Source: Schmidtea nova
Taxonomy: Eukaryota
NCBI GenBank assembly: GCA_044892505.1
Contig: CM097882.1
Coordinates: forward strand, 13,888,001 to 13,952,000
Length of the DNA stretch: 64,000 nt
Direction: 5' to 3'
The notes below the pieces were generated by a model. That model was not told the DNA's origin. It ran no database searches and saw only the letters and a program-made list of their open reading frames with translations. Within the stretch, counting starts at the first letter, position 1, and each line of letters opens with the position of its first letter. The position numbers were made by a program, and so were the translations under genes. Of the stretch, positions 9,467-64,000 are shown one piece after another.

Positions 9467-9472
9467 ACAACT

Positions 9473-11866: not shown

Positions 11867-11870
11867 TTTT

Positions 11871-42289: not shown

Positions 42290-44296
42290 TGTTGGGCAAA
42301 AACCACAAATGTTTTAATAAAGCGATAACCCCATAGGTAGAGAGCGCGCAAGATTTAGTTTCAACCCAAAAATCCATTTAAAAATCCAAGCGATTAAGTG
42401 GAAAACACCAAAAGGTGAAGTGGACTCAAAACACATCAACCAGTAGAGAACGCGCTAGCTGGGAGTCTAAAAGCCCTTACATTGAAACCTCGAGAAAAAT
42501 CAAATGCCATCAAAAGAAGAACGTTTAAAAGTTAGAATAGGCGGAAAACCCATTGAAAATACCCATAAAGAACGGAATTGTGTTATAAAACCTTCATGCA
42601 GAAAAAATTAACAGAATTTTAGCCGAAAATTGTGATTTTAGCAAAATATTTCACATTAACAATAAAAAGAACTAATATTGATCGAAATATCGTAAATTAA
42701 ATCAAATCGAACAAATTTCGATTCAAAAACAAAAATTTGGAATTAAAATAAATTATTTGTGTTTTGCAAAAAATTATTACACAAAAATATGGATTTAATT
42801 TTTGGAAAATCATTAGAATTCATTTAGAAAAATTAAAAGGAAAATTCTAGAATAATTTGTTTTATTACACTGGTGAAGGTGACGAAAATCGATGGTATAT
42901 ATACCGCCATCAAAATGGCAGAAATCAGAATTGGTGAATAATTTTCTGTTTAAGAATTTTTGCAGAATTGATTTTGAGAATCTAGTAAAAATTTTTGTTT
43001 GTGGAAAAAAAGAAAAATTCGGTAAGAAACATTCTTTTGTTCGGTGCGGGGTCACTGAACAGCATGCCCTTTCAGTTACCCCGTACCTGGTATTATTTTG
43101 TAAATTTTATTGCCTATATGTATCATAATCAGTTTTAATTATTATATATTTAATGAAAGTTATTTTGTTTTTTTTATTATTTTGATTTTAATCTCGTCAT
43201 AGGTTCCCATGATTCACGGAAATTCGTTTTAATATTTATTACACAAAAATAAAATTGATTAAATTTTTTTTTCTTCCGTACCCCCTGAAGCCTGTGTCTG
43301 GCCTTGCGCCGATCGGGTGGAAGTAGCCTGAGCGGATCGCTGGTTCGATACGTAAATCGATCAGTCCATATTTCCGAGTCCAGGTGAATAGCCTAACCAT
43401 CCATGATCACTTCATCCCAACTGGGGAACAGTGGCTTGGCCAAAGGCAAGGTGTTATATTAATGATATTTAATTTATAATAAATGTAGTTTATTTGAATT
43501 TATAATTTCCGACATATTTATCATCTAAAAATTAATACTACATGAAAACGTGAAAACGAATCTCTCCAGCAATGTCTTTTCCATTAGGAAAAATAATTGT
43601 ACAAGAACATTTTACTCATCGTCGCCTTCACTCTCGCAACAACCGTCATCTTATCCGTAAACACAAGTCAATGGAAGCTAATGTTTGAAAAGAATCATAT
43701 GAAATAATGCTCAAAACTGATATAATGATCATGAAATGAAATGAATTTAGGACAAGTATTGATTGATCTGAATTAAAACTCATTCATTATATAAATAAAT
43801 TTTCTCTGGTGAATCTTGTTTTCGGGAGCCTGAAGTTCCTAAGTGAATTGTCCCGAAAAATTCGCGCGCACTTGGGTTGGGAAATTCATGCTCGGACGAA
43901 ACCGAAATTTACTTTACTTGATATTAAAAATATTCGTTGAAAAATTTATAACTTATTTTTATTTTTATTTAGCATATAAAAAAACTTTTTAGATTAAATG
44001 CTTATTTGGATTTCTAAATTGATGGATAAAAATTTATTATTATGTGGATTTCGTTTTGATCAAAAAATAAAAATTTGCTTTTTATTATATTGAAAAAATT
44101 TTTTTATAATGAAAAATTGTAAACCAAAAATTTTCCTAATATTGTTATGATATAAAAGATTTTGTCATTTTATAAAATTTCTAAGAGTTTATAAATCAAA
44201 ACTTATACTGCCACCCATAAAAATTTTAAATCGAGAATATTATTATTATTTTATAAAATCCAAAATTTCGAAATTTTATAGAAAGAATTTTTACTA

Positions 44297-44381
<85 letters not shown>

Positions 44382-46080
44382 TTAAAATATAAAAATTCGA
44401 ATAAAAAAATGTATATTATAAAAATTAGAAATTTTATTATTATATTATTCTCATAAAATTATAAATTTAAAATTTATAAAAAGTAATATAAAAATGTATA
44501 TTATAAAATTAGAGATTTTATTATTATATTACTTTCATAAAATTATAAATCTAAAATTTATAAAAAGTATTATAAAAATGTGTATTATAAAAATTAGAAA
44601 TTTTATCATTATTTAATTTTCATAAAATTATAAATTTAAAATTTGTAAAAAGTATTATAAAAATTATTATTATTATTTTAATATAAAATTATTATTATTA
44701 TTTTAATTTTAAAAATATTTTATATAATTTATATATAGTATATTATAAATACCCCCACGATATCTCAAAATCATAACACATCCCTATTTGCAAAAATTTA
44801 CATCCATTTCATTCAATAACATTTCCCATACTAATACACAAGCAACATACATTTAAAATACAATATACACACATACACAGTATCATTTATTAGCATTCAA
44901 TAGTTATATACACACAGGCAAACCATACTGAAAATTCTACACAGTTATGTTAGTCTGCATCACACATCCAGAAAAACCCTACAAAAATTTCATTCACTTA
45001 TATCTATCATTCAACCATACCATAAAAAATTGAATATACCCAGCCAAACTTATTACAATCAAATAGGCCTTTTACATTATAGTTTAATTTACAAAATTAC
45101 ATAAAAATAATAAATAATAAACGAAAAAGAATAAAAAACTAATATCAAAAGAAAAATTTTATTAATCAAAATTGATAGACTTCATTCCGTTTGAGGAATA
45201 AAAACCCCCGACAAGGATTTTTCTTGTTTGTGGTTCTGAAGAGGCCGGTTCCTCGTATTCGCTTTGGAAATTTTTCTAAAATTGTTCAAAATAAATTATA
45301 ATTCTAAAATAATCAAAATTTTACTTGGTCGATAGAGTTGGCAATTTTGCTTCGTAGGAGCTGGAGTTCTAGTTTTTTTGACCCATTTTGGGTGGGAGAA
45401 TTTTCCTCTGACTTCGTAGTTTCCGGGGAGATCCATTTCTTGTTGATCTGAACTTTAGAACTCATTATTTAATCAATTTAGTGAAAAATTCAGAAACTTA
45501 CATTTAAAATTAATATGATTTTTAAATTGAGTAAATTTGTCCTTTTGATTAAATTAGCAATTTTAAACAAACGGAAATTTTATTTTTATTATTTCTAAAC
45601 TCGATAAAATTACGGTAATAATTAGAGTTTTTCTTAAATTTTAAATGCAGATTAAAATTTTTCTATAAAAATAAAGTATTTTATGTATTAATTATCATAA
45701 ATTGCAATATTGGTAAAATTTAAGGTTATATTAGTGTTTTCGATGCTCGGAATAATTTATTTGGATGCAATAATGAATTTATAGTTATGTAGAGTGTTTA
45801 TGTTGAATTTCCGATAAAATTTTGTTGAATGCTTATAGATAAATCATTAAAGGAGGGACAAAATTGGCATTAAACCTTCTATCGGTAGCCCTTGGACCCA
45901 GGAGATATTCGGTCAATCATAGTTTCGTATTGACGACGCTCACTGATTGCGAATACCCACTCACTTGTTACAGTACCATCGTTACATAGTGACGGGTAAC
46001 AAGATGGTTATTTCAATGTTTTATGTGTTGAGTTGTTGATGAGAGCCATAGTAACGTCAAGGTCATATTGACGATCAACA
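42290..46080 (+). repeat. Putative 5' LTR (~3.8 kb, TGTTG...CAACA)
   Basis: The first 1151 bp match 62843-64000. The right end is inferred from CAACA 18 nt before the PBS. Confidence 0.7.
44300..44378. repeat. (TA)n microsatellite inside the LTR; others at ~21288-21317 (TA)n and ~47231-47286 (TAT)n
   Basis: Seen directly in the sequence. Confidence 0.95.
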
Positions 46081-46098
46081 ACCCACCATATAAAAATT

Positions 46099-46116
46099 TG
46101 GGGGCTCAGCCGGGAT
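46099..46116 (+). promoter_or_regulatory. Primer-binding site, tRNA-Pro
   Basis: TGGGGGCTCAGCCGGGAT matches the canonical tRNA-Pro PBS TGGGGGCTCGTCCGGGAT at 16 of 18 positions. Confidence 0.8.
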
Positions 46117-47228
46117 AGAGTTTGTTTTTGCTTGAAAAAATCGAAAAGCAACTAAAACGAGTTCGCGCGAGACTTAATGAAAGTTTTCATAAAACATCAA
46201 CAAACTGTTAAATAAAATTTCGACAGAAACAGCGGAAAATTGTGTTTGATTTTACTAATATTATTGATATTATTATTATTATTAGAACGACTATATTTAT
46301 TTTTTTTTACCATTATGAGTANNNNNNNNNNNNNNNNNNNNNNNNNNNNNNNNNNNNNNNNNNNNNNNNNNNNNNNNNNNNNNNNNNNNNNNNNNNNNNN
46401 NNNNNNNNNNNNNNNNNNNNNNNNNNNNNNNNNNNNNNNNNNNNNNNNNNNNNNNNNNNNNNNNNNNNNNNNNNNNNNNNNNNNNNNNNNNNNNNNNNNN
46501 NNNNNNNNNNNNNNNNNNNNNNNNNNNNNNNNNNNNNNNNNNNNNNNNNNNNNNNNGTTTAGTATTATGATTGGAATCGCAAATAGCATTTTAGACGAGA
46601 TTTAAATTGAAAAATCGAGAAATTTCAAACAGAATCACCGCGAAAATGATAAAATTGAAAGCCAAAACGCGATTTTAAGCCCCAGGAGCAGCCAATGATC
46701 GAAAATGAAAATAAATAGCGACTACAGAGCGTAAAATAGGGGTCTCCAATACAAACAAAAGGCATATATAACATAAGATAAAATGTTGAGCCGGAATGGG
46801 TTAAAAGTGTAGGAAAATCGCCGGTAAAAGAGTCAAAAGATCAAACCGCGACTAATGAGTCCCACGAACAGCCAGTAATCGTAGAATTGTTCAAATAACG
46901 TCGATAGAGCGTAGAAAATGAGCACGCAGTACAGGCAAGTGAAAAATATGGTAAAAGATAAAATGCGACACCGGTATCGACGAAAGTGTAAAACATCGCC
47001 GCTATGATATTTAAAAAATTGAGAAATTACGGAATTTTGACCCAAGAAAGCAGTAACACCGAGTATTAATGATCATATAGATATCAGAATTCTCATTATT
47101 ATCATTTTAGCAGTAGAAACAGTAATTTGGTCAAATAATATAAAAATAAAACTGATTTATTATATTTTATTATAATTATTACGTAATAATATATAAGAAA
47201 TATATTGGTAAAATTGCTGTATAACGCG

Positions 47229-47288
<60 letters not shown>

Positions 47289-48532
47289 CATTTTAGTTAT
47301 TATTNNNNNNNNNNNNNNNNNNNNNNNNNNNNNNNNNNNNNNNNNNNNNNNNNNNNNNNNNNNNNNNNNNNNNNNNNNNNNNNNNNNNNNNNNNNNNNNN
47401 NNNNNNNNNNNNNNNNNNNNNNNNNNNNNNNNNNNNNNNNNNNNNNNNNNNNNNNNNNNNNNNNNNCGTGAGTGGTACTGTCGATATCATAATTATTATT
47501 AGCGATATTGGTGTTATTTTGACCGTTAATTATTAATTGAGAATGACTGAGGTATGACCCCTGTAATTTTATTTTGTTGGCAAAGAAGGACATGGAAATT
47601 ATCGGGTCTAAAAGAGATAACAACGGAAATGGATCAATACGTAAATTGTTTGTTTTAATTGATACAATGATACAGTAGAGAATGAATGATATAATCTAAT
47701 AAGTTTGGAGTTTGAATGTTGGGAAAAATTAGACTGTTGAAGTCAAAAATGATGCATGATAGTGATATTGAAAGGTTGATCGCGACTCAATTCGGAAATC
47801 GAAGTCGGGAATAACTCTAAAATCTTATGAAATCATAAATTAATATTTAACAACGACTTAAAAACGAATATAATGATATAGAATCAAACAAGAAAACGTG
47901 AGACTTAGCGCAAATACGAAAATTTTGAGATACACAAAATTAGGAACCTAGTAAAAGGAGGTGTTATATGACCATAAGATATGGGATGGAGTTCACGCGA
48001 ATCGCTTAGAGAATGAATATTCGAATACACAAAAATTGCTTCCAGTAAACGAAAAATTACCAAAAATTGCGAATACCGTAAATAAAAAATATAATTATTT
48101 TAAAATTGATAAAAAGTGTAAAAATTGTGAAAAAAATGTGTAAATAAATGTTTAATTATTTTTTATTTAGAAAATATTAGTATATTTAAAAAAAAATATA
48201 AAAAAAAATCATAAAAATTATGTACATAATGGCTGATTATTTTATTTATATTATTCGAAAAAATATCGAATATGGACGAATGGAGAAAATTATAAAAATA
48301 TAAAAATATAAAAAATATAAAAATATAAAAATATATGTATAAAAATGCCTGAATATTCTGTTAGTAGTAGTTTTGAAAAAATACAAAAATATATAAAAAT
48401 ATATAAAAAATTATAAAATTTGTGTACATAAATATTGAAGTTTTTATTATCTATTTTCGTTCAAATTTTAATAAATGGTTGACTCATGTTGATTCAAAAA
48501 GTTGTAAAAATCAGTCATCATGAATATTTTAG

Positions 48533-49015
48533 ATGGAATCAATTGAGCATATTTTACTACGAATCGAGACGTTTTTTAATTTTGAAAATGATCCATTGCT
48601 GGTGTTGAGCGAGAAACTCGAACGAGTGAATGAAATAAAAGATGAATTATTGTTGAATCCTAGACCACAACCTGAGAATCTGATAGTGATTTCAGGAATT
48701 GTAGGAACAACAAACGATATTTCGTTAGAAACGGTTTATGAATTACAACGATTGCGACTGAATAATCCGAATTTCAATCTAAAAATACAAGAATGGATTG
48801 GTAAAATCGATAAAATCATGGATAAGCTAGAGAGATCGATAAATCAACAGATCGATTTGTTTGAAAGATGTTATATTTGTCGACAAAGAGAAGCGAACAT
48901 CTTATTCATGCCATGTGGGCATTTGCGTTATTGACAGCTGTGCTCGAGAGAAATAAAGAGATGCGTAATCTGCAAACAGACAATTGATGACAAAATCGTC
49001 GTATTTTGTTCATAA
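48533..49015 (+). pseudogene. IAP/MDM2-type C-terminal RING protein with TGA at a Cys position
   Basis: CYICRQREANILFMPCGHLRY*QLCSREIKRCVICKQTI. Confidence 0.85.
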
Positions 49016-50020
49016 AGAATGTCATTCAAAATAAACGTTTTGGTCGTGTTGAACTTCGTCGATCATCCAATACTCCAAACCGTCGTAAAAATTAAATAAA
49101 CAAAGAACACTAGGTAATTAATGACTGAGAATCGTGTAAAAAACATAACAAGTAACGGCTAATGCCGAAAAATCAAACATTAGGAAAATGGGAATCTGTG
49201 ACAAAGTTACTTTTCTTTTCTTTTTGAATTTTCTTTTTTATTATTATTATAAATCCTCCTCATCATTATTATATTGATACAAATTTCATTACTATAAGTC
49301 TTCCTCATTACTGTTATTATATTGATTATCATTATTATATCGACCATTAGGACGAGCAATAAGTAGCGTTATAAAAGTTGATATTATAAGGAGAACCCTC
49401 TGAAATTAAGTAGGAAATGAGTGTCTGAGTAGAAAACGGGAAAATAGTACAAAAATTCATAACTGAGCTATCAAAAGATAGTACGCCAATTTTTTTGTTG
49501 TTGTTGTTGAAAAATTAGTAGACAACAAACGGGGAAAAACTTGATCACCCTGAGGAAAGAGAGTAGAATAGGATATCCATCGCACATGTTGACGAAATTT
49601 CGTTTGTGACTGATCATCACAAATGGCGAAACTAGTTGATGCGATTATTTTACGATTTTGAATTAGGTGAAAGGGTAACCCGTAATGTTCGTCTTATACA
49701 CCAGTTTGCCAAGGCATGATTGGTACACTGAGGTAGAGGACAGTAACATGAATAAGGAGAAAGTTGCTGAGAAAATCAGATGCAGATCTTAGAAAGTCGA
49801 AAGAGTAAAAAGCGAATTTCGATGATTACAGTAGATGATAGTATAATAAGAAAAGATTCTACCATGGTAGTTAAGGAATTAATTCGTAATTGAAAAGTAG
49901 TAGAACAATTTGAGAAAAACAGCCAGTAATAGCGAATTTATTTCTGAAATTGAAAATTGAGAATAGGGAAACGAGTGAATAAATAGTATAAAGAGAATAA
50001 TTGAAGACGGCCGAGAAAAA

Positions 50021-50421
50021 GTGAGAGACTTTGAGAGTCCAGATAATTGAGAAACTTTGAGAGTTCAGTGATAGACTTCGAGAGTACAGATAATTGAGAA
50101 ACTTTGAGAGTTCAGTGAGAGACTTTGAGAGTCCAGATAATTGAGAAACTTTGAGAGTTCAGTGAGAGACTTTGAGAGTCCAGATAATTGAGAAACTTTG
50201 AGAGTTCAGTGAGAGACTTCGAGAGTACAGATAATTGAGAAACTTTGAGAGTTCAGTGAGAGACTTTGAGAGTCCAGATAATTGAGAAACTTTGAGAGTT
50301 CAGTGAGAGACTTTGAGAGTCCAGATAATTGAGAAATTTTGAGCGCTCTGGGAGAGACTTTGAGAGTCCAGATAATTGAGAAACTTTGAGAGTTCATGTA
50401 TGTGAGAGACTTTGAGAGTCC
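50021..50421 (+). repeat. 47-bp tandem array (~8.5 copies), itself a dimer of ~23-bp subunits
   Basis: Unit GAGACTTTGAGAGTCCAGATAATTGAGAAACTTTGAGAGTTCAGTGA. Confidence 0.95.
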
Positions 50422-51282
50422 AATGTTTGTGGATATTGTTGAGAAATTTAGGAAAACGTTTGAGAGATAGAATTAAATAAAACTGCGCAGTTAAAATTTT
50501 GTTATGACAGAGAGAAACGTTGAACGCGAATACCTAAGGTGTAGTAATATAAACCGTTAACAAGAGCAGATAAAAGACATCGAGAAATACTTAGGAAATA
50601 AAATAATGGCCATGAATAGATAACGAACAAGACATTTTAACCTCGAATACCGAGATGAGTGTGAAAATAAGTCGACATGATCANNNNNNNNNNNNNNNNN
50701 NNNNNNNNNNNNNNNNNNNNNNNNNNNNNNNNNNNNNNNNNNNNNNNNNNNNNNNNNNNNNNNNNNNNNNNNNNNNNNNNNNNNNNNNNNNNNNNNNNNN
50801 NNNNNNNNNNNNNNNNNNNNNNNNNNNNNNNNNNNNGATACGACCATATAGATAATTATTACGAGATATAGATAATTTAAAATTTGAGCTCAAAGTAAAA
50901 GGGGGGTAAATAGCGTCGATGAAGAAGCGATTTTTATTTAGATTGTACAACAGATCAAAGCCAAGCCAAGAGATAGTCAAATCAATCAGTTATTGAAGAG
51001 GTATATATAGAAGAAAAGAAGAAAAAGAAGTCTTATTGAAAAGGAAAGAAGTAAAAGAAAATAAATCAAAGATGATCCAATTGAAGATAAAAGAGAGAAA
51101 TTAGCAATCGATATTAAACACAAATTGATAATATTACCAAACCAACCAAGTTCGTAAAGTCGAAAGATAAAGAGTCAAATCTATTAAAAAACGACGAAAG
51201 GAAATTACAAAGAAATAAAGCTGATAAATAAAGAAATAAAATCCACAATATTAGAAAGTTTGTAGCCGATTTTCAGAAAGAA

Positions 51283-54200
51283 ATGGAGGAGAATCAGAAA
51301 GTTACCAGTGTAAACTCGGAAGATAATTTATTAGAAGAAGAGCAGAAAATAACCAGTCCAAACGTAGAAGATAATTTACAGGAAGAAGAAAAAGAAGTAG
51401 AAACAATGAATATGCAACTACAACAGGATATCGAAGAAAAAGTAAATAAAATGATAACCGAATTATCAGACGTTGAAATTGAAAGAAAGGGAAATGTATA
51501 TGAATTTTCAGTAAAAGATATGGAGGGAGAAGAAAAGAAGAAGTTTGTGGAGAAATATAACCGAAAAAGAAGAGAAAGAAGAAGCAATGATGATACATGT
51601 AGCATGGACGAGAAAAGGGATGAATCTATGACAATCAAATTAGAAGAAGTGGCACAAAGATTGTTAACCATTACCATAGAAGAAATGACGAAAATGAATC
51701 AAAAGTCGGAAGAAAAGAGGAAATCAGCGAAGCTCGAAAGAATAAAACAAACAGAGACGTCAAAGACCGAACGATTAATCAGTAACCTAAGCAAGAGTGC
51801 AGGAAATCAATGTGAAACAACAACTGAATTACTAAAATGGGTTATAAAAAATAGTGCAAATATATCAAACATGAGATTGATAGTGAGAGAAATCGAGAAA
51901 TGCAGAGTTTATGCCCTTGGTATTCAACACAATTTGATGACATCATGAGAAAATGGAAACAACTAGAACAAACAAACGATGATCCACAGATGTGTAAATT
52001 AAAAGTTCAGTTTCCGAGTCTAGAAAAAATAAAGATGAATGTATCATTAACAACAAAGATCAAAGAGATAAAAGAGAGATTACCATTTAACTTACCATTT
52101 CACTTAAAATATGATGGAGAATCGCTGGATGATGATATAGAAATCGGTGTAACCCCGATACAAATCGAAACAAGTAATAAATTAACTGTTGATAAAATTT
52201 CAGGAAGCGAGTTGACCAGAAAAGCAAGAGGTGAAGATAATCCCGAAACAACGATAATTGCAATGATGAAAACTCCAGCTGGTCCAACACTTACAATTAA
52301 CATCGAAGTTAATGGCGTAAAAGTAGACGCAATGATAGATACTGGCGCAAATATATCAGCAATAGATATCGATATGATACCAGAAATGTTACGGTTATGC
52401 ATCGAGAAAACATCAGTAGACGTAATAACATGCAGCAAAGAATCTGTGAACATCGGTGGAAAAATATGGACGGACATCGAATATAAAAATGTAAAAATAT
52501 CAACTTATTTGACGGTAATAAAACAACTGGGTGCCTCATGCATTATTGGAACAGACTTAATACCAAAATTGTTAAAAGGATCTGTAATCAATTTGAATAC
52601 GATGAAGTTGAAACACCAAATTGAAGAAAATTGCACACGAGAAACAATAATAGAACAATCAAGTCAAGAAATGACCAGAAAAGGACAAGTATGTATGTTT
52701 CGAGAGAATACAAATGACGATTGGCTACATCGTATATTAACTACGAGCAGAAAAGTAAATCAGCCAACAACAATATTTGAACAACCTAAGATAGTTGACG
52801 ATGTAAAAATGGAGCACCGCAAAAAGATGGAATTGATCATTGAAATTACCAAAGAAATCATGCCAGAATGGTCAAAAAGTAAAGATCTATTCGAAATATT
52901 AGGAGGAGTAAGCCTAATGGTTGAGGAATATGCCAAAGGAAATGAAACGACAGAAGCGATGAATACCATAAAAGAAAGATTACCAATATTATTTACAATT
53001 GCCAGTTTTAAAGATGAGATACCATTGTACCACGCAATAAAAAGTGGGAATGAACAGAGAATGTTTGAAATCTTAAACTCATGGAAAAGTGCAAGCAACA
53101 TACCAACACGAAAAACTGGAAAGATCAAACACCCTTGATGATAGCAATTGAAAAAGGAGGATCCAGGAAACTCATAGCAGAACTGATGAGAACCGGATCA
53201 AGTTTTAAAGAAAGAGATGATAAAAATGAAACGGTGTTATCATATGCAGTGCAAGCAAATAACCATCAAATAATCAAATATATTATGTCAAATGCGACAG
53301 AAGAAGATATTGAAGTGCTCAGTTCAGATCCAAATCCATTAGTAAATGCAGTGAACAAAGATGCCGACGAAACAACAGCAAAAATGATTAAATGGTTACA
53401 TCCAGTTACGCATGAAGGAGTGATAAATGTCAATGACAGATTTGAAGATGGTGAAAATATAATCATGAAAAGAGCCATGAAAAGAAAATGGAAAATGTAT
53501 AAAACGATTAAAGCATTGCTGCAAAGACCTGATTTTAGATTCACGAACAACAAAAAAGAAAAAGAAAGAATTGGATCTAAAAGACATGAATTATATCAGC
53601 GAGTCATCATATGGAAAGAAAATATAAAAGAAAGCAGAATTCAACGAATCTGGAACAATGCTAAAGATGAAATAACCAAGAGAGCAAATATAAAAGCCGA
53701 TGCAAATGAAATAGCTAAAAGATATGAGGAAATAATAAAATTAATAAATGTCGAGGACGACATTTTAAATAGAGCCGAGGATGGTTCTGATGATCACAAT
53801 AAGCCTGACGATGAAGATGAAGAAAATGATAACAACAAAACAAAGAAAGATGACAATGAAAGTATCAACAGAAACAATGACAAAGATGAGAAAGACGATG
53901 GAAAAAGCAATAACGATGAAAAGGGAACGAAAGTGATGAACATAGCCAAGAAACTTCAAATTATGAAAAACGAACAGCATGTCTACATAAAACTCGAATT
54001 AAAGACATAATATTGCTGATAATGATGCTGTCAGCATTGAAAGGAACGGAAGCTGATGATAAAAGAAAACCAGTACAAGTATTATTACAAGGAGCAGATA
54101 ATGAAGAAGCATGTTGGAGTAGCATCAAATTGCAAAGTAAAGGAGATAATCCAGTCAAATGCCAACGAGCAGAAGGAGGAGAAATCCAAATAAATGGATT

Positions 54201-54390
54201 GAAGCGGGATGCAAAATACAAAATCTGTGTTTACAAAAAGAAAGCATCACAAGAAATGTTTAGAACACTCGTATGTCAGACAGTAGCACATAATGGTTTA
54301 AAAGTCATCCAAGAAAACATAAAAGTCATAGTAACCGACGAGCCAGATGAGAACATCAGAGTGTCGTCGAAACGCAAGTTGTCAGAGTAA
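51283..54390 (+). pseudogene. Element B polyprotein: helical/Gag-like region, ubiquitin-like, retropepsin, ankyrin repeats, acidic linker, signal, FN3-like; three single-base frameshifts
   Basis: VSLTTKIKEIKERL..LKYDGESLDDD (Ubl); AMIDTGANISAI; PLYHAI, QTPLMIAIEKG, TVLSYAV (Ank); IILLIMMLSALKGTEA; INGLKRDAKYKICV (FN3). Confidence 0.8.
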
Positions 54391-54542: not shown

Positions 54543-55178
54543 ATGAATCCGAACAACGAGAATCAAAGTTATCAAACATCAGTTCCAACGATCAATGAAA
54601 CATCAAATCAAACTCAGTTTCCAGAAGATACCAATATACGAGAAAGAGAAGGGTCACTGCAAACCCCAGTAATCGAAAATGAAACGCAAAATCCAACAAT
54701 TGACGATAGAAACCTGATATACCAAGTCGAAATTCCACTATTTGATGAAACCATGAACCCAATTCAAACGACATTCGTATTAAATCAACAACCAACAAAT
54801 AGCCAGACTCAATCAATATCAGCTCCGATGGTTTATCAGCAGACAATGACGCAAGAGTTATCATGGAAAACGCAATGTGAATTATTAAGCAGGATGTTGA
54901 ATCAAGCCTATGCACAATGGAAAAACGAACAAGCTTTGTTAACAGAAAGTGTAAACAGAAATTTATTATATCTTGCTAAAATGGAAGAACAACAACAAAT
55001 GATAATCCAAAAAGATCAGAGAATTGAATGGTTAACAAGACATACAGAGTGGCAAACAAACGAAATTAGAAGATTGAATGAGACGCGAGAAGAAGTTAGA
55101 GCATGGTATAACTGGTTAGACAATTTTCCAGAACCGGTTCGAGAACCTGACTCGACGGGAAGGGATGAACTATTATAA
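54543..55178 (+). CDS. Accessory ORF, Q/T-rich N-terminus + coiled coil
   Basis: Intact ~211-aa ORF after a CAG acceptor. Confidence 0.7.
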   Translation: MNPNNENQSYQTSVPTINETSNQTQFPEDTNIREREGSLQTPVIENETQNPTIDDRNLIYQVEIPLFDETMNPIQTTFVLNQQPTNSQTQSISAPMVYQQTMTQELSWKTQCELLSRMLNQAYAQWKNEQALLTESVNRNLLYLAKMEEQQQMIIQKDQRIEWLTRHTEWQTNEIRRLNETREEVRAWYNWLDNFPEPVREPDSTGRDELL

Positions 55179-55277
55179 AAATTTAAAACCAGTGTAAATA
55201 AAATGTAAAAATGTGAATATGAATAAAAACTTGGTATAAAAAAAAACAAAACGAAAAAAATTGTAAATTATTTTAGA

Positions 55278-56681
55278 ATGCAGACCGAGAATCAGCATAA
55301 ACAAGAAGAATTGATCGAACTATATCAGATACTACAGAGACAACGGATAGAACCAACAGAATTTCAAGAAAGATTTAAATGTAAAGTATGTAGAAATTTA
55401 TTGATAGAACCCAGACAAACTGAATGTGGATGTCGAATATGCACTAATTGCGTGATGAAAATAATACGAACTAAACAGAAGCTATGTCCTGAATGTGGTG
55501 AAGCAATAATAGATCAATTTGACCAAACCAGACCAGATATCGCAATGAATCGGGAAATAATGAACGCAGCAACAACCTGTCCAAATAAACCATGTGTATG
55601 GAGTGGGCCAATAAAATGGATCGCCAAACACCTTTATAATTGTGATGATACGAAAGCCAAATGTAAGTGGTGTGAGGAAGAAATGTTGAAGAAAATCAAA
55701 GACAGTCATGAGGAAATGTGTGAACAACGACAGGAAATCTGTGAGTTTTGCAACGAAACAGACGCTTGGATAGTGTTAAAAGATGAGCATTGGAATATAG
55801 AAGAAGGGCAAGTATGTGACGAGTATGAAGGTAATTGTAATCAATGTGGAATGGCAGAAAACGTGAAGCTAAAAGAACATTGGGAAATATGCGAAAAGAA
55901 GCCTACTGCATGTCCACTAAAATTATTCAATTGTAAAGTGAGATTACCAAAAGAGGAAATACAAAAGCATGTAGACGAAAATAGTGTAAATCATTTGAGA
56001 ACCGTTGTGGAAGCTATTGGAGCAACCGCACTGGTAATTGGAGAAGCCAACACAGAAATAAAATCACACAAGATCATGATACAAGAGATGTTGGATACGA
56101 GAGGAAATTTTGAAAGAATAAGAGAACAAATGATCCAAAAAATGAAACTATTAGACCAGAAAATAGCAGAAATATCAACAATCCAACAAAGATTGGAAAG
56201 CATATTGCCAACAATGGAAGAACTACCCGTCACACCCTACTATTGGAAAATCACAGAATTTACAGAGAAATTGAGACTAGCAAGAGAAGGAGGTCAACGT
56301 GTATGGACAAGTCCACCTTGTCACAGTTGGAAACATGGGTACAAGCTTAGATTCAAAGTATATCTAACGGGAGACGGACTAGGAGCCGGAACTCATTTAT
56401 CTGTATATTTTCAAATATGTAAAGGAGATTATGACGATTGGTTAGAATAGCCCTACGATTGCGATATAACTATGATGATCGGAACAAAGGAAAACAACGT
56501 TCGGGAAGTATTCAGACCAAACTTGAGGAAGGTAGAAGCAGCTTATAGGAAGCCGATCGAAAACTACAACGTAGCTGTAGGAAATCCACGTTTTATTGCC
56601 TTACATCTATTAACCATAGAACAATCATTGTATTTGGTAAATAATATCCTGTATCTGATTATCGAAGTAAGGAAGCCGTAG
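55278..56681 (+). pseudogene. TRAF: TRAF-family protein (RING, zinc fingers, coiled coil, MATH); TAG at 56448
   Basis: CKVCRNLL...CGCRICTNC...CPEC; WKITEFT...SPP...GYKL...YLTGDGLGAGTHLSVYF...GDYDDWLE*P; continues in frame to YLIIEV. Confidence 0.92.
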
Positions 56682-56908
56682 TGAAGATGGAAAAAGTGTA
56701 AATATGTCTGTATTATAATGAAGTATCTGTATCATAATGTACAAAATAAAATTAGAAAATCACAAAAAACATAAAAATTAAAAAGAAATATAAAAATGAG
56801 AAAAACCAAAAAAAAAAAAAAAAAAAATCAAATATAAAAATCAAAATTTTGTAAATATAGAAAACAAAAAATTGTGAAAAATATAATGGAGAAAATATTG
56901 TAGATACA

Positions 56909-58078
56909 ATGACTGGAAGGAAGATCGTGAAAATACGAGAAGATGACAGATCATTCAAGAGTTTATGCGAATTAATGAAAAGAGATAAAGAAAGGATGTC
57001 AAAACCAATTTCTTCAGAAATAATTTATTGTCAATTTACACGAACAATGCCGAATGTTCCTAAGGAAAGGAGTTATGGAAAATTCAAAATTATCGATGAA
57101 ACGTTGAAAAACGAGAACCGAAGATATATAACCTTTTTACAACAAGACAATTTCTATGAAAAGCAATACAGAAAATTCGCCAAAGAGGGTTTGTATTTTG
57201 CAGGGACAATTGAGAAACCCGATAAAGTAATCTGTGTATTTTGCAGAATTGAAATAGAACCTTGGAGAATTAACGATGATCCACTAACAGAGCATAGAAA
57301 ACTTTCACCCACATGCCAGTTTGTGTTAAAGGCATGCGAAAAACCAAGAAAACCAGCAACAATGAACAATGACGAAGAAGATAAACCCAAAATAGTAACG
57401 ATAACTTCGACAGGCCCAGCAAAGATACGATTCATAGAAGTTGACCCAAAATATACGATTAATGGGAGAACTAACACTTTTGTAGATAAAAAGATGGGTA
57501 TCAGATTAGCAACAGAAGGTTTTTATGCAATAAATGAATCAACCACTGAATGTTCAGAGTGTTGAATACAATATCAATTACCAAAAGAAGAAGGAAAATA
57601 CCTGAAACACAACGAATATTGTAAATATGGAGAAGAATTATATGAAGACGAAGAACCGATCAATTATAAAAACCCAGAGATGCCTGTTAATGAATTATTA
57701 GTAGAAAAGATATTAGATGAACCACGAACTCAAAAGGCAATGAAACGCACCGGCAAAAGCGAAATATTTATGAAAGAAGTCATCAGAGAGAGATTGAGAA
57801 GAAATGGAGAAACATTTGGATCAACCCTAGAATTCTTTAAAGCTATAATACAGTTCACCAGAAAATCCCAAGTTGTCAACCCAGAATCATGTATCAAGAA
57901 AGTTATATTAAATAAACACCCCTGTTCAATCTGTTGGATAAAGAAAGTGGAAGTTATTCACTTACCATGTGGACATTTGTTAGCATGTGAAAATTGTAGC
58001 AATAAATTGAGATTGTGCTCAATGTGCAGGAAACCGGTCGACAAACGGATCAAGGGATTCCGTTATGCCGATCAATAA
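56909..58078 (+). pseudogene. IAP: Inhibitor of apoptosis: BIR-BIR-UBA-like-RING; TGA at 57563 in BIR2
   Basis: FAKEGLYF...VICVFC...W...DDPLTEHRKLSPTCQF; LATEGFY...CSEC*...H...C; CSICW...LPCGHLLACENC...CSMCR. Both parts share a frame. Confidence 0.93.
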
Positions 58079-58212
58079 TCCAATCAAACAACTTTGTAAA
58101 TAAATTGTAAAGATTTTAATTTCAATCGATGTATACAAGTATTATTTTATAAGCATGAGCAACAAAAAATGTATAAACAAAAGGAAATTACCCATGTTAT
58201 TATTATTTCAGA

Positions 58213-59760
58213 ATGAATATACAACAATTGATATGCATCCTAGATCAGGAGATGGCAAAAAGACAAGAGCAACTAAATCAAATGAGAAGCTATGAACAAA
58301 GAATGGAAGCCATCCAAGAAAACGTCAGAGTAATTGAGAAACGAACCCAAGAAATCAACCAAATAAAAGAGGAAAACGAGGAACTGCGAAAGATAATAAA
58401 CGATAAGGCGCATATCGAAGCTGAACTACAAAACTATAAACGAGAGTACAGGGAAATGGAGAGAAAACTCGAGCACGAACAACAAAAGTTAGTACCGTTG
58501 AAAAATCAAGCGAGATTAAGAAAAGATGAGCTCGAAACCTATAAAAGAGATACCGAAACAAGGTATGACAACACCATAAGATTCTACCAGCAACAACTCG
58601 AAAGTGAAAGGAACAGATATGAAGCCATGAAAAAGAAATGGGAAAAGTGTCGAGATGAAGCATTTGCCTTGAGAGGACAACCTAAAAAGAAGCTTAAAGT
58701 CAGAACAAGAAACATTGAACCTTAAAGCGAACAAGAAAAGATCATTAGAAAAGTTAAAGCAGAGGCTAGAAAATGGAAACAAGAACACCAAGATTTATTA
58801 GAAATGGCTCGACACAGAAAAATGCTACATGAAGAATTATTAAGACGGAGAGACGTTCAAATCGAAGCTCTGAAAGAGGAATGTCATTGGTATGCAGACA
58901 TACGTCATGAGGAAACGGAGAAACTCAGAAAAGAAATATTCCAGTTGAAAACGAGCGGACAGTTCAGAGAAAGAAGCATAAGGCATCAAATAAAGTGGCT
59001 AAAAGAACAAACCAGAACATGGAAAAAGACCTGGAAAAGAACTCGAGACGAACTACGAGAATTCCCAAAGAAGCTGATGTCAATAAATGAAGCAGAATTG
59101 TGGGAAAATGCAGAAAAGCAAGAGATAGAAAACAAAGAATTAAGAAGGCAAGTTCAATTAAAAACTGAATGGAATCAAAGGAGAATGAAATTTACCAGGA
59201 ATCAAGAAGCTCGTATCAAATATCTGGAATTTGAAAACAGGCAATATGATCAACAGAAGAATATGGATGATAGAAGTATTGAAGAACTGACAATCGAATT
59301 GACTATTGCAAACCGTGAAGTCAACGGATATCGAGGTACAAATACTCATAAAGAGATTGTCATTCAACACCAGCGACGGCAGATAGAAGAGACAAAGGCC
59401 GAATGTGAAAAAGCGATCCAGCAATCCCAAAAGGAAATCGAAATGGCTATCCAAAGTTTGGAAGAAAACCGCCAAAACTATGAAAGAGAAATTGAAAGGC
59501 TGAAAAATATGGAAAATACGAGAGAGCTCGAGATAGAAAAAGAACAGCTGAGTGAAGAACTCGATTATATGACATATTTGCTAGATGAAGAGATAGAAAT
59601 CTCAAGAACCTTGCGAGAAAGAGTTCAGAGCCTACAAAATCAACCTCCAATCATTCTATGGCCACTATATCCAACACCAATACAACCTGTACATTTGGAG
59701 CAAGAAAATCCTCAAATCGAAGATGAAGGGTTCGGAGAAATTGAAGAGACGTTTGTATGA
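58213..59760 (+). pseudogene. ~515-aa coiled-coil accessory ORF with one in-frame TAA (58723)
   Basis: Two same-frame ORFs with an open linker; heptad-rich E/K/Q/R composition. Confidence 0.75.
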
Positions 59761-60024
59761 GTAATAAAAGTGAATGTAAAGTGTAAAAAGAAATTGAAAT
59801 GTAGTGTAAAAAGAAAACGTTGTAAAGAAATGTAAAAAGAAAAAGTTGTAAAATATATCCAAAAAATTAAATAAAAAGCAGAAAAAATAAAAAATTCAAT
59901 AAAAATTAGAAAAAATGAAAAACAAATAAAAATTAGAAAATGATAAAAATGATAAAAATGATAAAAACAAAAACAAAATTAATAAAACTATAGAAAAGAG
60001 TTATGATTATTCAAATTATAGAAA

Positions 60025-60600
60025 ATGAGACTATTGAAGCAAAGATCAGAACCAGAACAACAGACGATATCAAAAGAAAGATTCAAAAAATGGAAGAGAG
60101 CAACAGAGCAATATTATCAAGACCAAATAGATCAATTGAAGGAAGTAATGAGCAAAGATAGAAAATATATCGCACAAATGGAACAAAAGTGTGAGACGAT
60201 GGAAATAATCAAGAGAGAAAATTATCTATTTCGCCAACAAAATGGTCTTACTCAAAAATATTGCGACAGACAGAAGCAAGAGATTGACAGACTCAAAAGG
60301 GAAATAAGCAGAGAACAGAACACTGATAATAAAAGGAGAATTAAGATCGAGTCATTACAACGATCCTTGAAGAGCAAACAGAAAAAGATTATCAAAAGAG
60401 AAAAACAGATAATAAAATTGAAAAGTGAAATCATCGAAGCAAAATTTGATACGTTCAAAGCAAAGAAAGCTGTAGAAATTAAAACGGCAGAAAATTACGT
60501 CCTCAAAGAGCAAAGGCGAAAAGAAGCAGACGAGATTGTAAAAATGGGTAACTGGAAGCCAGAAAGTCCGGTAAAGCAAAATGAAGAGATGAAAGAATAA
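60025..60600 (+). CDS. Basic coiled-coil accessory ORF (191 aa)
   Basis: Intact ORF after a TAG acceptor. Confidence 0.7.
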   Translation: MRLLKQRSEPEQQTISKERFKKWKRATEQYYQDQIDQLKEVMSKDRKYIAQMEQKCETMEIIKRENYLFRQQNGLTQKYCDRQKQEIDRLKREISREQNTDNKRRIKIESLQRSLKSKQKKIIKREKQIIKLKSEIIEAKFDTFKAKKAVEIKTAENYVLKEQRRKEADEIVKMGNWKPESPVKQNEEMKE

Positions 60601-60696
60601 AAATATATCTAAACTCATGTAAATATCCCTGTAAAAATAAAAAAGAGAAAATTTGAAAAATCATTAAACAAATTTGAATCTATAAATCTATAGAAA

Positions 60697-61521
60697 ATGA
60701 GCAATCTAATGAGGATCGTAGAAATCATCATGATATTTATAATTACAAACTGCCGAAGCGAAGAAGCATTGAGTCAATGTCAAGCAAGCCATCCATTTAG
60801 AAGATCCGATAGCATTTGTGTAAGCTATCAAAAAATTTGTCGCACCAGAAATGAGGAGTGTCAGCAAATCCATCTACAATGTCAACAATGTCCCCAATCC
60901 AGAGAAGATTCAATCACCATCCTTAAACAATTGAGAAATGAAACTCAACAATTAATCCAACTACAAATCTCTTTAACCAAAAGGAACAATCTTCAACTAA
61001 AGAAACAGCTAGAAAACCAATCATCTTTCAAACAGTTGACAACCGAACTGAAGAAATTGAGCAAGTTAATAGAAAAATCTGTAAATAATAAAGAGGAAGT
61101 TAACGAGGAAAGATCAAGTTTTACCGAAGAGTTAAATCAAAAACTGAAAACTCAACTTCATCAGACCGAGAGAATTATAAAACAATTGATATCATCCGAA
61201 AAGCAGAAAGAGATTATCCCTAAGCAAGGATCAACCAACGAAGACGTCAGAGACCGAGAAGCAGCCATCACAGTCATTCTACAAGGCATCAGTCTTTTCG
61301 CAGTCATAATGATCCTTAGCATTGTTGCATCAATCGGATTAGAGAAAATAAAATTAGAGAAAGCGAAAATCCAGTCAAATACAATCAAACGAATCACCCA
61401 TGAAGACAACAACCCGTCAGAAAATTTTCTAAGATCAATATTTGAAGATCCAGTTCCAGAACAGCCTAATCCTAAGACATCTACAACCTCGGTGCAGATG
61501 AATTACTTTTATAAACAATAA
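60697..61521 (+). CDS. Type I membrane protein: signal, Cys-rich segment, coiled coil, TM
   Basis: MSNLMRIVEIIMIFIITNCRS; six Cys; TM ITVILQGISLFAVIMILSIVASIGL. Confidence 0.75.
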   Translation: MSNLMRIVEIIMIFIITNCRSEEALSQCQASHPFRRSDSICVSYQKICRTRNEECQQIHLQCQQCPQSREDSITILKQLRNETQQLIQLQISLTKRNNLQLKKQLENQSSFKQLTTELKKLSKLIEKSVNNKEEVNEERSSFTEELNQKLKTQLHQTERIIKQLISSEKQKEIIPKQGSTNEDVRDREAAITVILQGISLFAVIMILSIVASIGLEKIKLEKAKIQSNTIKRITHEDNNPSENFLRSIFEDPVPEQPNPKTSTTSVQMNYFYKQ

Positions 61522-61721
61522 TATGATCTTATTCCTCATTTGACAATTCATGTATTCATCTATTCTATTAATTTTTTTTTGTTGTATTTTCATCTTGAAC
61601 AATATTTCATTATCATTAAATCATAATCCTGTGTAAAAATCGTAACGCCCTTGTAAATAGAAAAAATTATTGTCTATCGTCATTATTCAATTTCTTTCTA
61701 TTAGAAACACAAAAATCAACA

Positions 61722-62525
61722 ATGAAATCGTACCGAAAAGTTGTCCTAATCGCCATGATCACAACAATTTATTGTCATCTCGAAGAAACCCAGAAATCAA
61801 GCCAATTAAACCCAAATCAACAATGTAATAAAGAACCATTTGAAATCTCTTACAACAAACAACTATCCGAAAAGATCGAGCAAGTCAAAATCGAAATTCA
61901 AAATACCCTCTTCAATCAAAATGATGAAATTTCAGATCTAAAGAGAATTGCAAGGATAAAATGAGCCGACTTAGCGATCAGAGATATATATGAGGATATT
62001 TTTGATAGTGATCGAGAAACCCGTGACGCAATAAAAAGTCTCACCAAAGAACTTAAAATGAATATAAACAAGTTAATCGATCAGCTAACGAAAAATTCAT
62101 CAAGTCCGAAATGCCTGAAACAAATCCAGCAAATTCATCATAACGTGTCCCAGCAGATTTCCGAAGTAGGAAACCAAACGGCACAACAACTGAGAAAGGC
62201 TTATTACGAAAACCTGGCATTTATGAATAAAATCCACGATCACATAAACGAGATATCGAAACCAGATAACAATCAAGACAGAGACAAGTGCAGAATATCC
62301 CTCCTATCATCCGAACGAATTCTCGATATCTGCCTGATCATCCTTAACTTTTTCCTAATAATCGGAATTTGTGGTATAATGTGGTTAGGCTTGACCGCCA
62401 CAAGAATGATGAATAACATGATCTCCGAACGATCCAGAAGAGAAGATGACAAGAAGCAGTTGATCAATACCGAGTCATTCAAACTATTCCAGTCGAAGAT
62501 CCAACCAATCCAATCCAAAGGTTAA
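61722..62525 (+). pseudogene. Second type I membrane coiled-coil protein; in-frame TGA at 61962
   Basis: Signal KVVLIAMITTIYC; same frame across the stop; TM ICLIILNFFLIIGICGIMWLGL. Confidence 0.7.
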
Positions 62526-62842
62526 TTCAACAAACTTAATAAACTTGATAAAACTTTCATCCGAGTCGTTGTAGACTCATATCGAACTTTGATTAGCCGC
62601 TGTAGGCACATATATTACACTATATTTAATTTTGCTTGCGAGTCGATGTAGACTCATATTAATGTATACGTATTAACTTTTTATTAAATTTTATCACTTT
62701 TTATTTTTATTGTCGCGAATGGCATGATCACGACCAAGTAGCTCGTGTATAATGTACAACCTTTTGACCTTTGATTAGTCTTGATTCTTAACCCCTCTGA
62801 GAAATTGCGGGACGCAATTTTTGCGGGCCCCCGAGTATTTTA

Positions 62843-64000
62843 TGTTGGGCAAAAACCACAAATGTTTTAATAAAGCGATAACCCCATAGGTAGAGAGCGC
62901 GCAAGATTTAGTTTCAACCCAAAAATCCATTTAAAAATCCAAGCGATTAAGTGGAAAACACCAAAAGGTGAAGTGGACTCAAAACACATCAACCAGTAGA
63001 GAACGCGCTAGCTGGGAGTCTAAAAGCCCTTACATTGAAACCTCGAGAAAAATCAAATGCCATCAAAAGAAGAACGTTTAAAAGTTAGAATAGGCGGAAA
63101 ACCCATTGAAAATACCCATAAAGAACGGAATTGTGTTATAAAACCTTCATGCAGAAAAAATTAACAGAATTTTAGCCGAAAATTGTGATTTTAGCAAAAT
63201 ATTTCACATTAACAATAAAAAGAACTAATATTGATCGAAATATCGTAAATTAAATCAAATCGAACAAATTTCGATTCAAAAACAAAAATTTGGAATTAAA
63301 ATAAATTATTTGTGTTTTGCAAAAAATTATTACACAAAAATATGGATTTAATTTTTGGAAAATCATTAGAATTCATTTAGAAAAATTAAAAGGAAAATTC
63401 TAGAATAATTTGTTTTATTACACTGGTGAAGGTGACGAAAATCGATGGTATATATACCGCCATCAAAATGGCAGAAATCAGAATTGGTGAATAATTTTCT
63501 GTTTAAGAATTTTTGCAGAATTGATTTTGAGAATCTAGTAAAAATTTTTGTTTGTGGAAAAAAAGAAAAATTCGGTAAGAAACATTCTTTTGTTCGGTGC
63601 GGGGTCACTGAAAAGCATGCCCTTTCAGTTACCCCGTACCTGGTATTATTTTATTAATTGTAAATTTTATTGCCTATATGTATCATAATCAGTTTTAATT
63701 ATTATATATTTAATGAAAGTTATTTTGTTTTTTTTATTATTTTGATTTTAATCTCGTCATAGGTTCCCATGATTCACGGAAATTCGTTTTAATATTTATT
63801 ACACAAAAATAAAATTGATTAAATTTTTTTTTCTTCCGTACCCCCTGAAGCCTGTGTCTGGCCTTGCGCCGATCGGGTGGAAGTAGCCTGAGCGGATCGC
63901 TGGTTCGATACGTAAATCGATCAGTCCATATTTCCGAGTCCAGGTGAATAGCCTAAACATCCATGATCACTTCATCCCAACTGGGGAACAGTGGCTTGGC
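62843..64000 (+). repeat. 3' LTR (partial, truncated by window end)
   Basis: Near-identical to 42290-43440 (two substitutions and one 7-bp indel seen by eye). No canonical PPT upstream. Confidence 0.85.

Follow-up and report, generated by a model that had tools for sequence, protein, structure and literature searches.

The window that we analysed is a 64,000-nucleotide stretch of Schmidtea nova DNA, and what lies at its right-hand end, running on past it, is a giant LTR element without reverse transcriptase (RT), which we call the satellite to set it apart from its LTR-sharing partner, the helper (Table 1). Both LTRs proposed by an earlier reading of the letters alone (here, the sequence-only reading) are present with TG...CA ends, the 3' one traced past the window to 66590, and over 3,740 aligned columns the two differ by 10 mismatches plus four indels. 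The proposed PBS holds up as well, being complementary to the 3' end of tRNA-Pro(TGG) genes from this same genome. A TSD matching the bases ..ACTTG before the element had been suggested, and a duplication does exist, but it is 4 bp long (CTTG) and not 5 bp. A mariner-type transposase remnant forms the 3' flank of the element.

Table 1. Features of the satellite copy (positions count from the first letter of the window)
Feature	Position	Strand	Remarks
5' TSD copy CTTG	42286..42289	+	4 bp
RT-less LTR element (satellite)	42290-66590	+	~24 kb; ends beyond window
5' LTR	42290..46088	+	3.8 kb, TG...CA; same sequence pool as helper LTRs
PBS, tRNA-Pro	46099..46116	+	10 nt past LTR end; same in helper and satellite
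Leader common to satellite and helper	46117..51282	+	~81-87% with indels
Leader RING ORF (RING160)	48533..49015	+	160 aa in other copies; stop at codon 134 in window copy
47-bp tandem array in leader	49926-50442		
ORF1	51283..54390	+	1,036 aa in other copies; 3 frameshifts in window copy
o211	54543..55178	+	211 aa, no Pfam family
TRAF	55278..56681	+	467 aa, full-length; stop at codon 391 in window copy
IAP	56909..58078	+	389 aa; stop at codon 219 in window copy
cc515	58213..59760	+	515 aa, likely coiled-coil; stop at codon 171 in window copy
o191	60025..60600	+	191 aa, basic, likely coiled-coil
TM274	60697..61521	+	274 aa, predicted type I membrane protein
TM264	61722..62525	+	264 aa, predicted membrane protein; stop at codon 81 in window copy
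3' cis region common to satellite and helper	62533..62842	+	85%
3' LTR	62843-66590 (in window, 62843..64000)	+	TG...CA
3' TSD copy CTTG	66591-66594		outside window

Six genes of the window copy are disrupted, ORF1 by three frameshifts and RING160, TRAF, IAP, cc515, and TM264 by early stops; apart from a slight excess of G>A, the copy shows no evident sign of hypermutation. In unbroken copies, seven ORFs of 211, 467, 389, 515, 191, 274, and 264 aa lie downstream, which bears out the seven accessory genes that had been claimed, and a further 160-aa RING ORF in the leader makes nine ORFs overall. The leader likely holds the packaging signal. The last 45 nt of the 3' cis region, identical in three of three helpers and three of the four satellites checked, contain no purine run in the satellite that could serve as a polypurine tract next to the 3' LTR, and because the helper has the same sequence there, we regard this absence as a trait of the lineage.

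What, then, is the helper? It is a 29.8-kb autonomous element with the Burro layout, a single polyprotein of ~4,900 aa (4,893 here) with Gag, Env (in frame), PR, RT, RH, and IN, and we term it Burro1-like from domain order and length only. The satellite has no Gag, Env, RT, RH, or IN and so does not have the Burro polyprotein; it does have the Burro accessory set of MATH/TRAF, BIR, ankyrin, and Ubl, and its coding identity to the helper is 41-61%. A second autonomous family, with a 4,968-aa polyprotein and the same tRNA-Pro PBS, carries homologs of o211 (38-40%), TRAF (35% identical), and cc515 (27-31%) in the same order as the satellite. The protease of the satellite is 68% identical to that of the helper, 52% to that of the second family, and 31% to that of element A, the kind of element that the sequence-only reading had held responsible for mobilisation; A has no blastn or tblastx match to the satellite, and we reject it as helper in favour of the Burro1-like element.

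The make-up of ORF1 tells how the satellite is related to its partner. It comprises a post-nucleocapsid block, a Ubl, an aspartic protease (its DTG invariant in 22 of 22 copies), an ankyrin domain, and a short tail, and these blocks are homologous to aa 441-552 (where ORF1 begins), 1280-1482, 2629-2778, and 3805-4342 of the helper polyprotein. RT, RNase H, and integrase were found in none of nine RT-less copies probed with the helper pol region, just as had been claimed; the Gag/zinc-knuckle region of the helper (aa 1-450) likewise has no match in any of the nine, and Env is missing from the ORF1 blocks. Because ORF1 is four helper-polyprotein blocks without Gag, Env, or RT-RH-IN, the description "Gag-like/Ubl/protease" keeps its last two terms and loses its first, and the ankyrin domain, which sits after integrase in the helper, is ancestral. 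The ankyrin repeats read as standing in the place of RT-RH-IN are there, but they did not replace pol, which rules them out as a captured substitute. A comparison to IkB and a label of NF-kB had also been attached to them; against the PDB, the domain gives generic ankyrin matches with no IkB among the best 60 of 63, and according to PMC13563047 no clear homologs of NF-kB were recognised in S. mediterranea, so that the label is left without support. A search for the Rel domain (RHD) was blank, and its controls were likewise silent.

One might still suppose that the window holds nothing more than one Burro copy in decay, its pol simply deleted, or that separate insertions only look like LTRs. 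The six broken genes would suit that idea, but it is refuted by 1,791 exact matches to a satellite ankyrin marker, by 12 independent satellite insertions with TSDs (all 12 that could be scored), by four junctions that recur across copies, by four separate losses instead of one, by the divergence from the helper, and by purifying selection. The claim of a non-autonomous, multi-copy LTR element is supported. Counting the helpers, a 4-bp TSD was present in all 15 scorable elements (12 satellite and 3 helper) of the 22 examined.

How numerous is the family? Exact markers count 955 for the satellite TRAF, 1,035 for its IAP, 247 for the helper RT, and 1,689 for the LTR-end/PBS common to both. The resulting satellite-to-helper ratio of ~7:1 is approximate, because these 30-41-nt markers were chosen from 10-22 satellite copies but only 3 helper copies, and PBS-anchored counts give about 4:1 to 5:1. 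Among 83 PBS matches in the first 56.7 Mb of C1, a satellite marker followed 50, helper RT 12, both 0, and neither 21; every fifth listed PBS match (n = 20) gave 15 satellite-type elements, 3 helpers, 1 helper deletion, and 1 unclear case. At ~20 kb per copy, the satellite could, by rough reckoning, reach ~3% of the genome. The family is young, and LTR pairs within copies are mostly 99.7-100% identical. About half of the satellites are without TRAF and IAP (a TRAF marker follows 47 of 100 ankyrin markers), and because these cargo-less forms have their own TSDs and near-identical LTRs, the two genes are not needed in cis.

The cargo itself is elaborate. RING160, which helper leaders also have, is an IAP-type RING without a BIR. 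The TRAF has RING, zinc fingers, coil, and MATH, and matches TRAF1/2/3/5/6 in Pfam and PDB; the IAP has a BIR with invariant CCHC, a weak UBA-like segment, a C-terminal RING, and a second, degenerate BIR-like motif (read from sequence) that would make it BIR-BIR-RING, with BIR and RING ligands invariant in 10 of 10 copies. Neither the TRAF nor the IAP had a match at E<=1e-5 in protein database searches. The cassette of TRAF, IAP, RING, and ankyrin seen earlier is therefore real in its domains, but its downstream "RING" is the C terminus of the IAP, split off by the stop in the window copy. The cargo may, as that earlier reading proposed, consist of partner genes of one pathway. On shared variants, purifying selection acts on eight of the nine satellite genes, with dN/dS of 0.08 for TRAF, 0.09 for cc515 (interrupted by in-frame stops in 8 of the 19 full-length copies), 0.13 for the ankyrin block, 0.14 for o191, 0.18 for TM274, 0.28 for the protease, and 0.32 for IAP; only TM264 lacks a clear signal (0.71, p 0.17). 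In a TRAF tree, five element-borne TRAF/MATH rows fall on one side of a branch (98/98) from 18 host-like loci, these being a subset of the 150 scored matches and the long branches being liable to attract. Both this branch and the 35% identity of the second-family TRAF speak against recent capture of the TRAF from the host, and the cargo would mostly have been inherited from an older Burro lineage instead of being captured by the satellite.

TM274 invites a different thought about function. Its predicted layout is a signal, a six-cysteine domain, a coil, a TM segment, and a tail, and a gene on a Polinton-like element matches the cysteine domain at 53-54% identity. If TM274 is receptor-like, then it, TRAF, and ankyrin might be decoys in innate-immune signalling and not caspase inhibitors, close to the earlier TNFR/NF-kB idea, a notion that we find possible though doubtful. 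It draws on the expansion of planarian TRAFs (PMC6109357), on six cysteines nearly invariant across the Polinton-borne and two database relatives, and on nearest ESM Atlas clusters of Grindelwald/TACI/Fn14-type receptors, but the best of these scores 0.81, under the 0.9 mark, TM274 has no sequence match to TNF receptors in Pfam or PDB, and the ankyrin argument meets both its ancestral origin and the unclear standing of planarian NF-kB homologs described above. The full-length model of the protein is poor (pLDDT 50), another model has pLDDT 65, and fold searches with the cysteine domain gave no clear match; the Polinton homolog of that domain had no usable match in the ESM Atlas, and pairing the TRAF MATH with the TM274 tail, with no alignment used, gave no answer (score 0.00). 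We take the likeness to TNF receptors as a lead only.

The relation between satellite and helper is clearest in their LTRs, which are drawn from one pool. In trees built from the LTRs of 13 satellites and 11 helpers (7 of the latter classed only by an RT marker ~14 kb downstream), 8 label changes are needed against 8.2 when shuffled, and satellite monophyly is rejected (p-AU 3e-4 and 8e-87). The first 600 bp of the LTR are identical between one satellite and one helper, and a tree of the RING gene in the leader places 2 of 11 helpers among the satellites. LTR mixing and TSDs together suggest that the satellite is likely mobilised in trans. DNA-level gene conversion could be another source of the mixing: on such an account, LTRs in their thousands are shuffled by conversion or ectopic recombination, and several Burro-type families mobilise the satellite, including the second one, whose PBS and gene order agree. 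We think this improbable, since second-family LTRs have no blastn similarity to satellite LTRs and ORF1 is nearer the helper by its protease. Moreover, exchange before insertion fits the observations, because young copies have near-identical LTRs within themselves yet differ by 5-20% from one another.

Our preferred reading, to which we give a probability of roughly 0.8, is that the window element is one defective member of an LTR family present in many copies, which a Burro1-like helper likely drives and whose own IAP and TRAF likely keep the host cell alive. The helper probably packages, reverse-transcribes, and integrates the satellite, as the LTRs, primer site, and leader in common suggest. 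Satellite RNA from the 5' LTR would retain the packaging and priming signals and travel in helper particles, where template switching between co-packaged RNAs would exchange LTRs, and at times the leader, while leaving the diverged coding core untouched. The retained protease would cleave ORF1 into Ubl, protease, and ankyrin products, each downstream ORF might have a spliced subgenomic RNA behind it, and IAP and TRAF, as ubiquitin-ligase and adaptor proteins, may dampen caspase-dependent death where elements are active. A BIR+RING protein of Burro1 is reported to shield stem cells from caspase death (as cited in PMC13465017), and RNAi of host TRAF is reported, in PMC7586133, to increase cell death.

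It is tempting to go further and imagine a two-component, retrovirus-like system in which both parts depend on their pairing, an env-bearing, IAP-less helper giving particle and enzymes and a particle-riding 24-kb satellite giving a receptor-like protein, a full TRAF, and a stem-cell-sparing BIR-IAP. No BIR was found in four of four helper and two of two second-family copies (tblastn, motif, phmmer), the helper has only a RING in its leader ORF and only MATH in its TRAF, most of the 150 scored BIR matches show the satellite's 399-aa frame, and the satellite cargo is under purifying selection. Against this, just 4 of the ~250 helpers were examined over their whole length, IAPs of the host may be enough (there is one divergent non-satellite BIR locus, L117), and a mere parasite of the helper would also give a 7:1 excess; we hold the idea to be tentative and on the whole unlikely. 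Were it true, the protection from cell death that is credited to Burro1 elsewhere would depend here on a passenger that is not autonomous and that cargo-less deletion forms in turn parasitise.

In any case, most scored BIR genes here ride on a passenger unable to copy itself. LTR elements that are not autonomous tend to be small or to lack coding capacity; what is new is a giant, protein-coding, apparently helper-dependent satellite that exceeds its helper ~7:1 in copies. RT-based repeat annotation would miss or misfile such a family, and the common LTR pool serves as a genomic record of helper-satellite recombination. Separate knockdowns of the helper, the full satellite, and the cargo-less satellite are feasible, so that host-transposon mutualism and selfish cell rescue can be tested against each other.

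Among known systems, acutely transforming retroviruses are replication-defective and helper-dependent, having lost gag/pol/env, and they carry cell-derived growth or survival genes; such viruses are short-lived isolates from somatic tissue that bear one or two oncogenes, whereas the satellite family is fixed in the germline, numbers ~1,800 copies, and carries an old block of several genes. Burro1/GYPSM1 and Burro-2/3/4 of S. mediterranea are likewise giant Ty3/Gypsy-type elements with MATH/TRAF, BIR, ankyrin, Ubl, and coiled-coil (PMC6431247), Burro1 itself with BCL2 as well, so the TRAF/ankyrin combination is not the novelty it had been taken for. Burro1 and our helper agree in polyprotein order, length (4,873 versus 4,893 aa), and in-frame env; unlike Burro, the satellite is without Gag, Env, RT, RH, and IN, its TRAF is a separate full-length gene, and the BIR gene is on it and was not found on the helper. 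The literature searched held no RT-less Burro; Grohme 2018 and Lee 2026, outside that search, may describe such elements. Mouse ETn too shares LTRs with a coding partner, MusD, is trans-mobilised, and is the more numerous (~240 versus 100), but as described in PMC6466679 it is non-coding, unlike a 24-kb satellite with nine ORFs, eight under purifying selection. The non-autonomous pararetroviruses of grasses and their partners have diverged coding sequence but keep non-coding regulatory sequence in common through frequent region-specific recombination (PMC5491270); unlike the satellite, they are plant DNA viruses with no LTR integration and no anti-apoptotic cargo. Plant LARD, TR-GAG, BARE-2, and Quinta/Cereba are also long non-autonomous LTR elements, some with GAG/protease (bioRxiv 10.64898/2026.03.01.708851). 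As described there, LARDs are long (>4 kb) with a non-coding interior, unlike the nine-ORF satellite, TR-GAG keeps the Gag that nine of nine satellite copies lack, BARE-2 lacks Gag only, and none of them carries the host-signalling genes found on the satellite; they do exchange LTRs by template switching, in pairings that are parasitic or mutualistic.

How does an LTR element multiply when it has no RT of its own? In the genome analysed (1.25 Gb, 283 contigs; probably that of a planarian, judging from its Burro-type elements and many TRAF loci; the window is G000:C1:13888001-13952000), the RT-less element is real: it is a giant satellite that codes for proteins and very probably depends on a Burro1-like helper. 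The window copy is 24.3 kb long and, as the sequence-only reading had supposed, its 3' LTR runs past the window end, stopping in the neighbouring stretch L001, with CTTG duplicated on both sides; a mariner-type transposase remnant forms the 3' flank. Between the two LTRs there are 4 indels and, over 3,740 columns, 10 mismatches, and the PBS, 10 nt past the LTR, fits the 3' terminus of tRNA-Pro(TGG) genes of the same genome, which bears out the LTRs and PBS claimed for an element lacking RT. This spacing and the absence of a polypurine tract suggest that priming of satellite and helper may be unusual. Pfam confirmed Ubl-like, protease, ankyrin, TRAF, BIR and RING domains. The window copy is itself defective (ORF1 has 3 frameshifts, and five genes contain stops); elsewhere, copies have a leader RING ORF of 160 aa (RING160), an ORF1 of 1,036 aa and, as the seven accessory genes foreseen, downstream ORFs (n = 7) of 211, 467, 389, 515, 191, 274 and 264 aa (o211, TRAF, IAP, cc515, o191, TM274 and TM264).

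Coordinates of the features (window positions unless a stretch outside the window, L, or a contig is named)
Feature	Position	Remarks
Satellite	42290-66590	
5' LTR	42290-46088	begins TG, finishes CA
3' LTR	62843-66590	begins TG, finishes CA
Interval before 3' LTR	62798-62842	polypurine tract absent; short inverted repeat in its place, common to helper and satellite
Inter-ORF spacers	54391-62840	1,671 nt; TGTAHATA 7 times on sense strand, 0 on other strand
Element A	1-19300	Burro-type; Bcl-2-like, viral fusion glycoprotein, protease, RT-RH-IN domains
Inverted repeat	25460-34554	~9 kb, near-perfect; arms 97-100% complementary in longest blocks; AT-rich subrepeats, foldback-like
tRNA-Pro(TGG) genes	G000:C1:459.6 Mb (L081)	long tandem arrays, period 308 bp; tRNA-end pattern has 899 matches genome-wide
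Extra ORF of a satellite sublineage	L064:3392-4837	between ORF1 and o211
Polinton-like element	L057:6402 to L059:4189	18 kb, inside a satellite leader; pPolB, double-jelly-roll capsid, integrase, TBP-like gene, terminal inverted repeats
Helper polyprotein aa 4230-4893	L023-L024	after ankyrin; signal-like segment, FN3-like repeats, C-terminal TM
Second autonomous family	L112-L115, L103-L106, L135-L139	4,968-aa polyprotein; LTRs 1.6-3.3 kb; tRNA-Pro PBS as in satellite; RING in leader; downstream o211-like, TRAF (470 aa), coiled-coil, TM
Helper-derived deletion form	L072-L074	separate form, tandem copies, 96% identical to helper; retains integrase C-terminus, ankyrin, FN3 tail

The satellite is abundant. 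Genome-wide, exact matches (which are not curated copy counts) number 1,791 for its ankyrin block, 955 for TRAF, 1,035 for IAP and 1,689 for the LTR end plus PBS; the helper RT marker has 247. Each fifth among the first 100 listed PBS matches (n = 20, all on C1) proved satellite-type in 15 cases, one of them assigned by the ORF1 start alone, autonomous in 3, a helper-derived deletion in 1 and unclear in 1. Along the first 56.7 Mb, 83 PBS matches are followed by the satellite marker in 50 cases, the RT marker in 12, neither in 21 and both in none. The proposal of multiple copies with distinct TSDs also holds: all 15 satellite and helper elements scorable at both ends have a 4-bp TSD (3 of them, ATAT twice and ATTA, within AT-rich sequence, where chance duplication is likelier), the other 7 of the 22 examined being tandem, interrupted or beyond the fetched stretch.

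What, then, is the partner? Three helper copies, which measure about 29.8 kb and whose paired LTRs are 99.8-100% identical, encode a single ORF of 4,892-4,893 aa, ordered Gag, CCHC, MATH, fusion glycoprotein, protease, RT, RNase H, integrase, ankyrin and FN3, which agrees in domain order and size with the 4,873-aa Burro1 polyprotein of PMC6431247 (section 7). The segment after the ankyrin domain is a predicted second surface protein, absent from the Burro passage of that section. Elements like A, first proposed as helpers, yield that role: no DNA similarity was found between element A and the satellite, whose protease is 31% identical to that of A, 52% to the second family's and 68% to the helper's. 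Element A, whose pol is 44% identical to helper pol, is interrupted by a 9-kb minus-strand non-LTR element with RT and a Ulp1 protease.

ORF1 aligns to the helper in four blocks (aa 441-552, 41%; 1280-1482, 46%; 2629-2778, 61%; 3805-4342, 41%), with Gag, the MATH region, Env and RT-RH-IN missing and every junction in frame. On this alignment, its ankyrin domain corresponds to the one that follows integrase in the helper, brought beside the protease by in-frame loss. RT-RH-IN is indeed missing, as first read, but the ankyrin repeats are no substitute for it, and the Gag-like part falls away, since none of 9 satellite copies gave a match to probes from Gag, Env and pol of the helper. Identities this low (41-61%) show a long separate history, not a recent deletion.

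The LTRs tell another story. In trees of their first 600 bp and last 400 bp (13 satellites; 11 helpers, 7 of them classed by marker position only), satellite and helper labels change 8 times, against 8.2 when shuffled; satellite monophyly is rejected (p-AU 3e-4 and 8e-87), and one satellite-helper pair has an identical 600 bp. In the leader RING tree 9 helpers cluster by themselves (100/99), and the other 2 fall among satellites. Read together with the diverged core, these trees show full mixing in the LTR, some in the leader and none in the core. Gene conversion could perhaps also homogenize LTRs; template switching between co-packaged RNAs would be the simplest reading.

Selection has acted on most of the genes. 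On variants common to copies (10-22 copies per gene; such variants are non-independent and p-values indicative), dN/dS is 0.08 for TRAF, 0.09 for cc515, 0.14 for o191, 0.18 for TM274, 0.27 for o211, 0.28 for RING160 and 0.32 for both IAP and ORF1; for TM264 (0.71) departure from neutrality is not significant. ORF1 private variants are near neutral (0.80). TRAF is full-length; in IAP, the BIR ligands are invariant and the RING is cIAP-like. The cargo block is old, judging from collinear homologs of o211, TRAF (35%) and cc515 in the second family, and from a tree in which element-borne TRAF/MATH domains stand apart from the 18 host-like loci (98/98). A BIR was found neither in the 4 helper copies nor in the 2 second-family copies searched, and most of 150 scored BIR matches lie in the satellite's frame. 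Just 47 of 100 ankyrin markers have a TRAF marker after them, and the deletion forms carry TSDs of their own; both observations weigh against a strict need for the cargo in cis. The satellite appears to be still acquiring genes, since four sampled copies, L064 among them, form a sublineage with an extra ORF of 482-518 aa (signal peptide, an EGF-like cysteine-rich stretch by eye, a TM segment; no Pfam match). In the inter-ORF spacers TGTAHATA, which resembles a Pumilio element, exceeds its shuffled mean of 0.6, 0 of 200 shuffles reaching seven.

The six-cysteine domain of TM274 recurs in a Polinton-like element and two database proteins. Its likeness to TNF receptors is a lead, unconfirmed by Pfam, PDB and fold searches. 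The homolog on the Polinton-like element, whose first 75 aa give maximum score for 150 of 150 scored genome matches, suggests that genes have been exchanged between DNA and retro elements.

With structure, amplification, partner, LTR mixing and selection in hand, we propose a mechanism to which we give a probability of about 0.8. Satellite RNA, which would retain its leader, its PBS and the cis signals at the 3' end, would serve as substrate for the Gag, RT and integrase of the helper; dependence on the helper is very probable. The satellite's own protease would process ORF1, and downstream ORFs would be made from spliced RNAs (as a raw count, a T-rich YAG lies <=20 nt upstream of 9 of 9 start codons). 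IAP and TRAF would favour survival of cells with active elements, a role we consider somewhat probable because of that reported, second-hand, for the Burro1 BIR-RING protein (PMC13465017) and of host TRAF RNAi (PMC7586133), as far as the portions available of these papers go. The NF-kB/IkB role once suggested finds no support, either among the PDB matches listed or in the available part of PMC13563047. It is unlikely that the helper depends on the satellite's cargo; if it did, the finding would gain interest.

How new is all this? The TRAF/Ank combination is not new, contrary to the first reading: TRAF, BIR, ankyrin and BCL2 content of Burro elements stands already in the portion consulted of PMC6431247. 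An RT-less Burro was not found in the literature searched, and key Burro papers may hold an earlier description. Non-autonomous LTR partners with LTRs or regulatory sequence in common are themselves familiar, to go by the parts available of each source: ETn/MusD (PMC6466679); LARD, TR-GAG, BARE-2 and Quinta in plants (bioRxiv 10.64898/2026.03.01.708851); and grass pararetroviruses, whose partners have regulatory sequence in common (PMC5491270).
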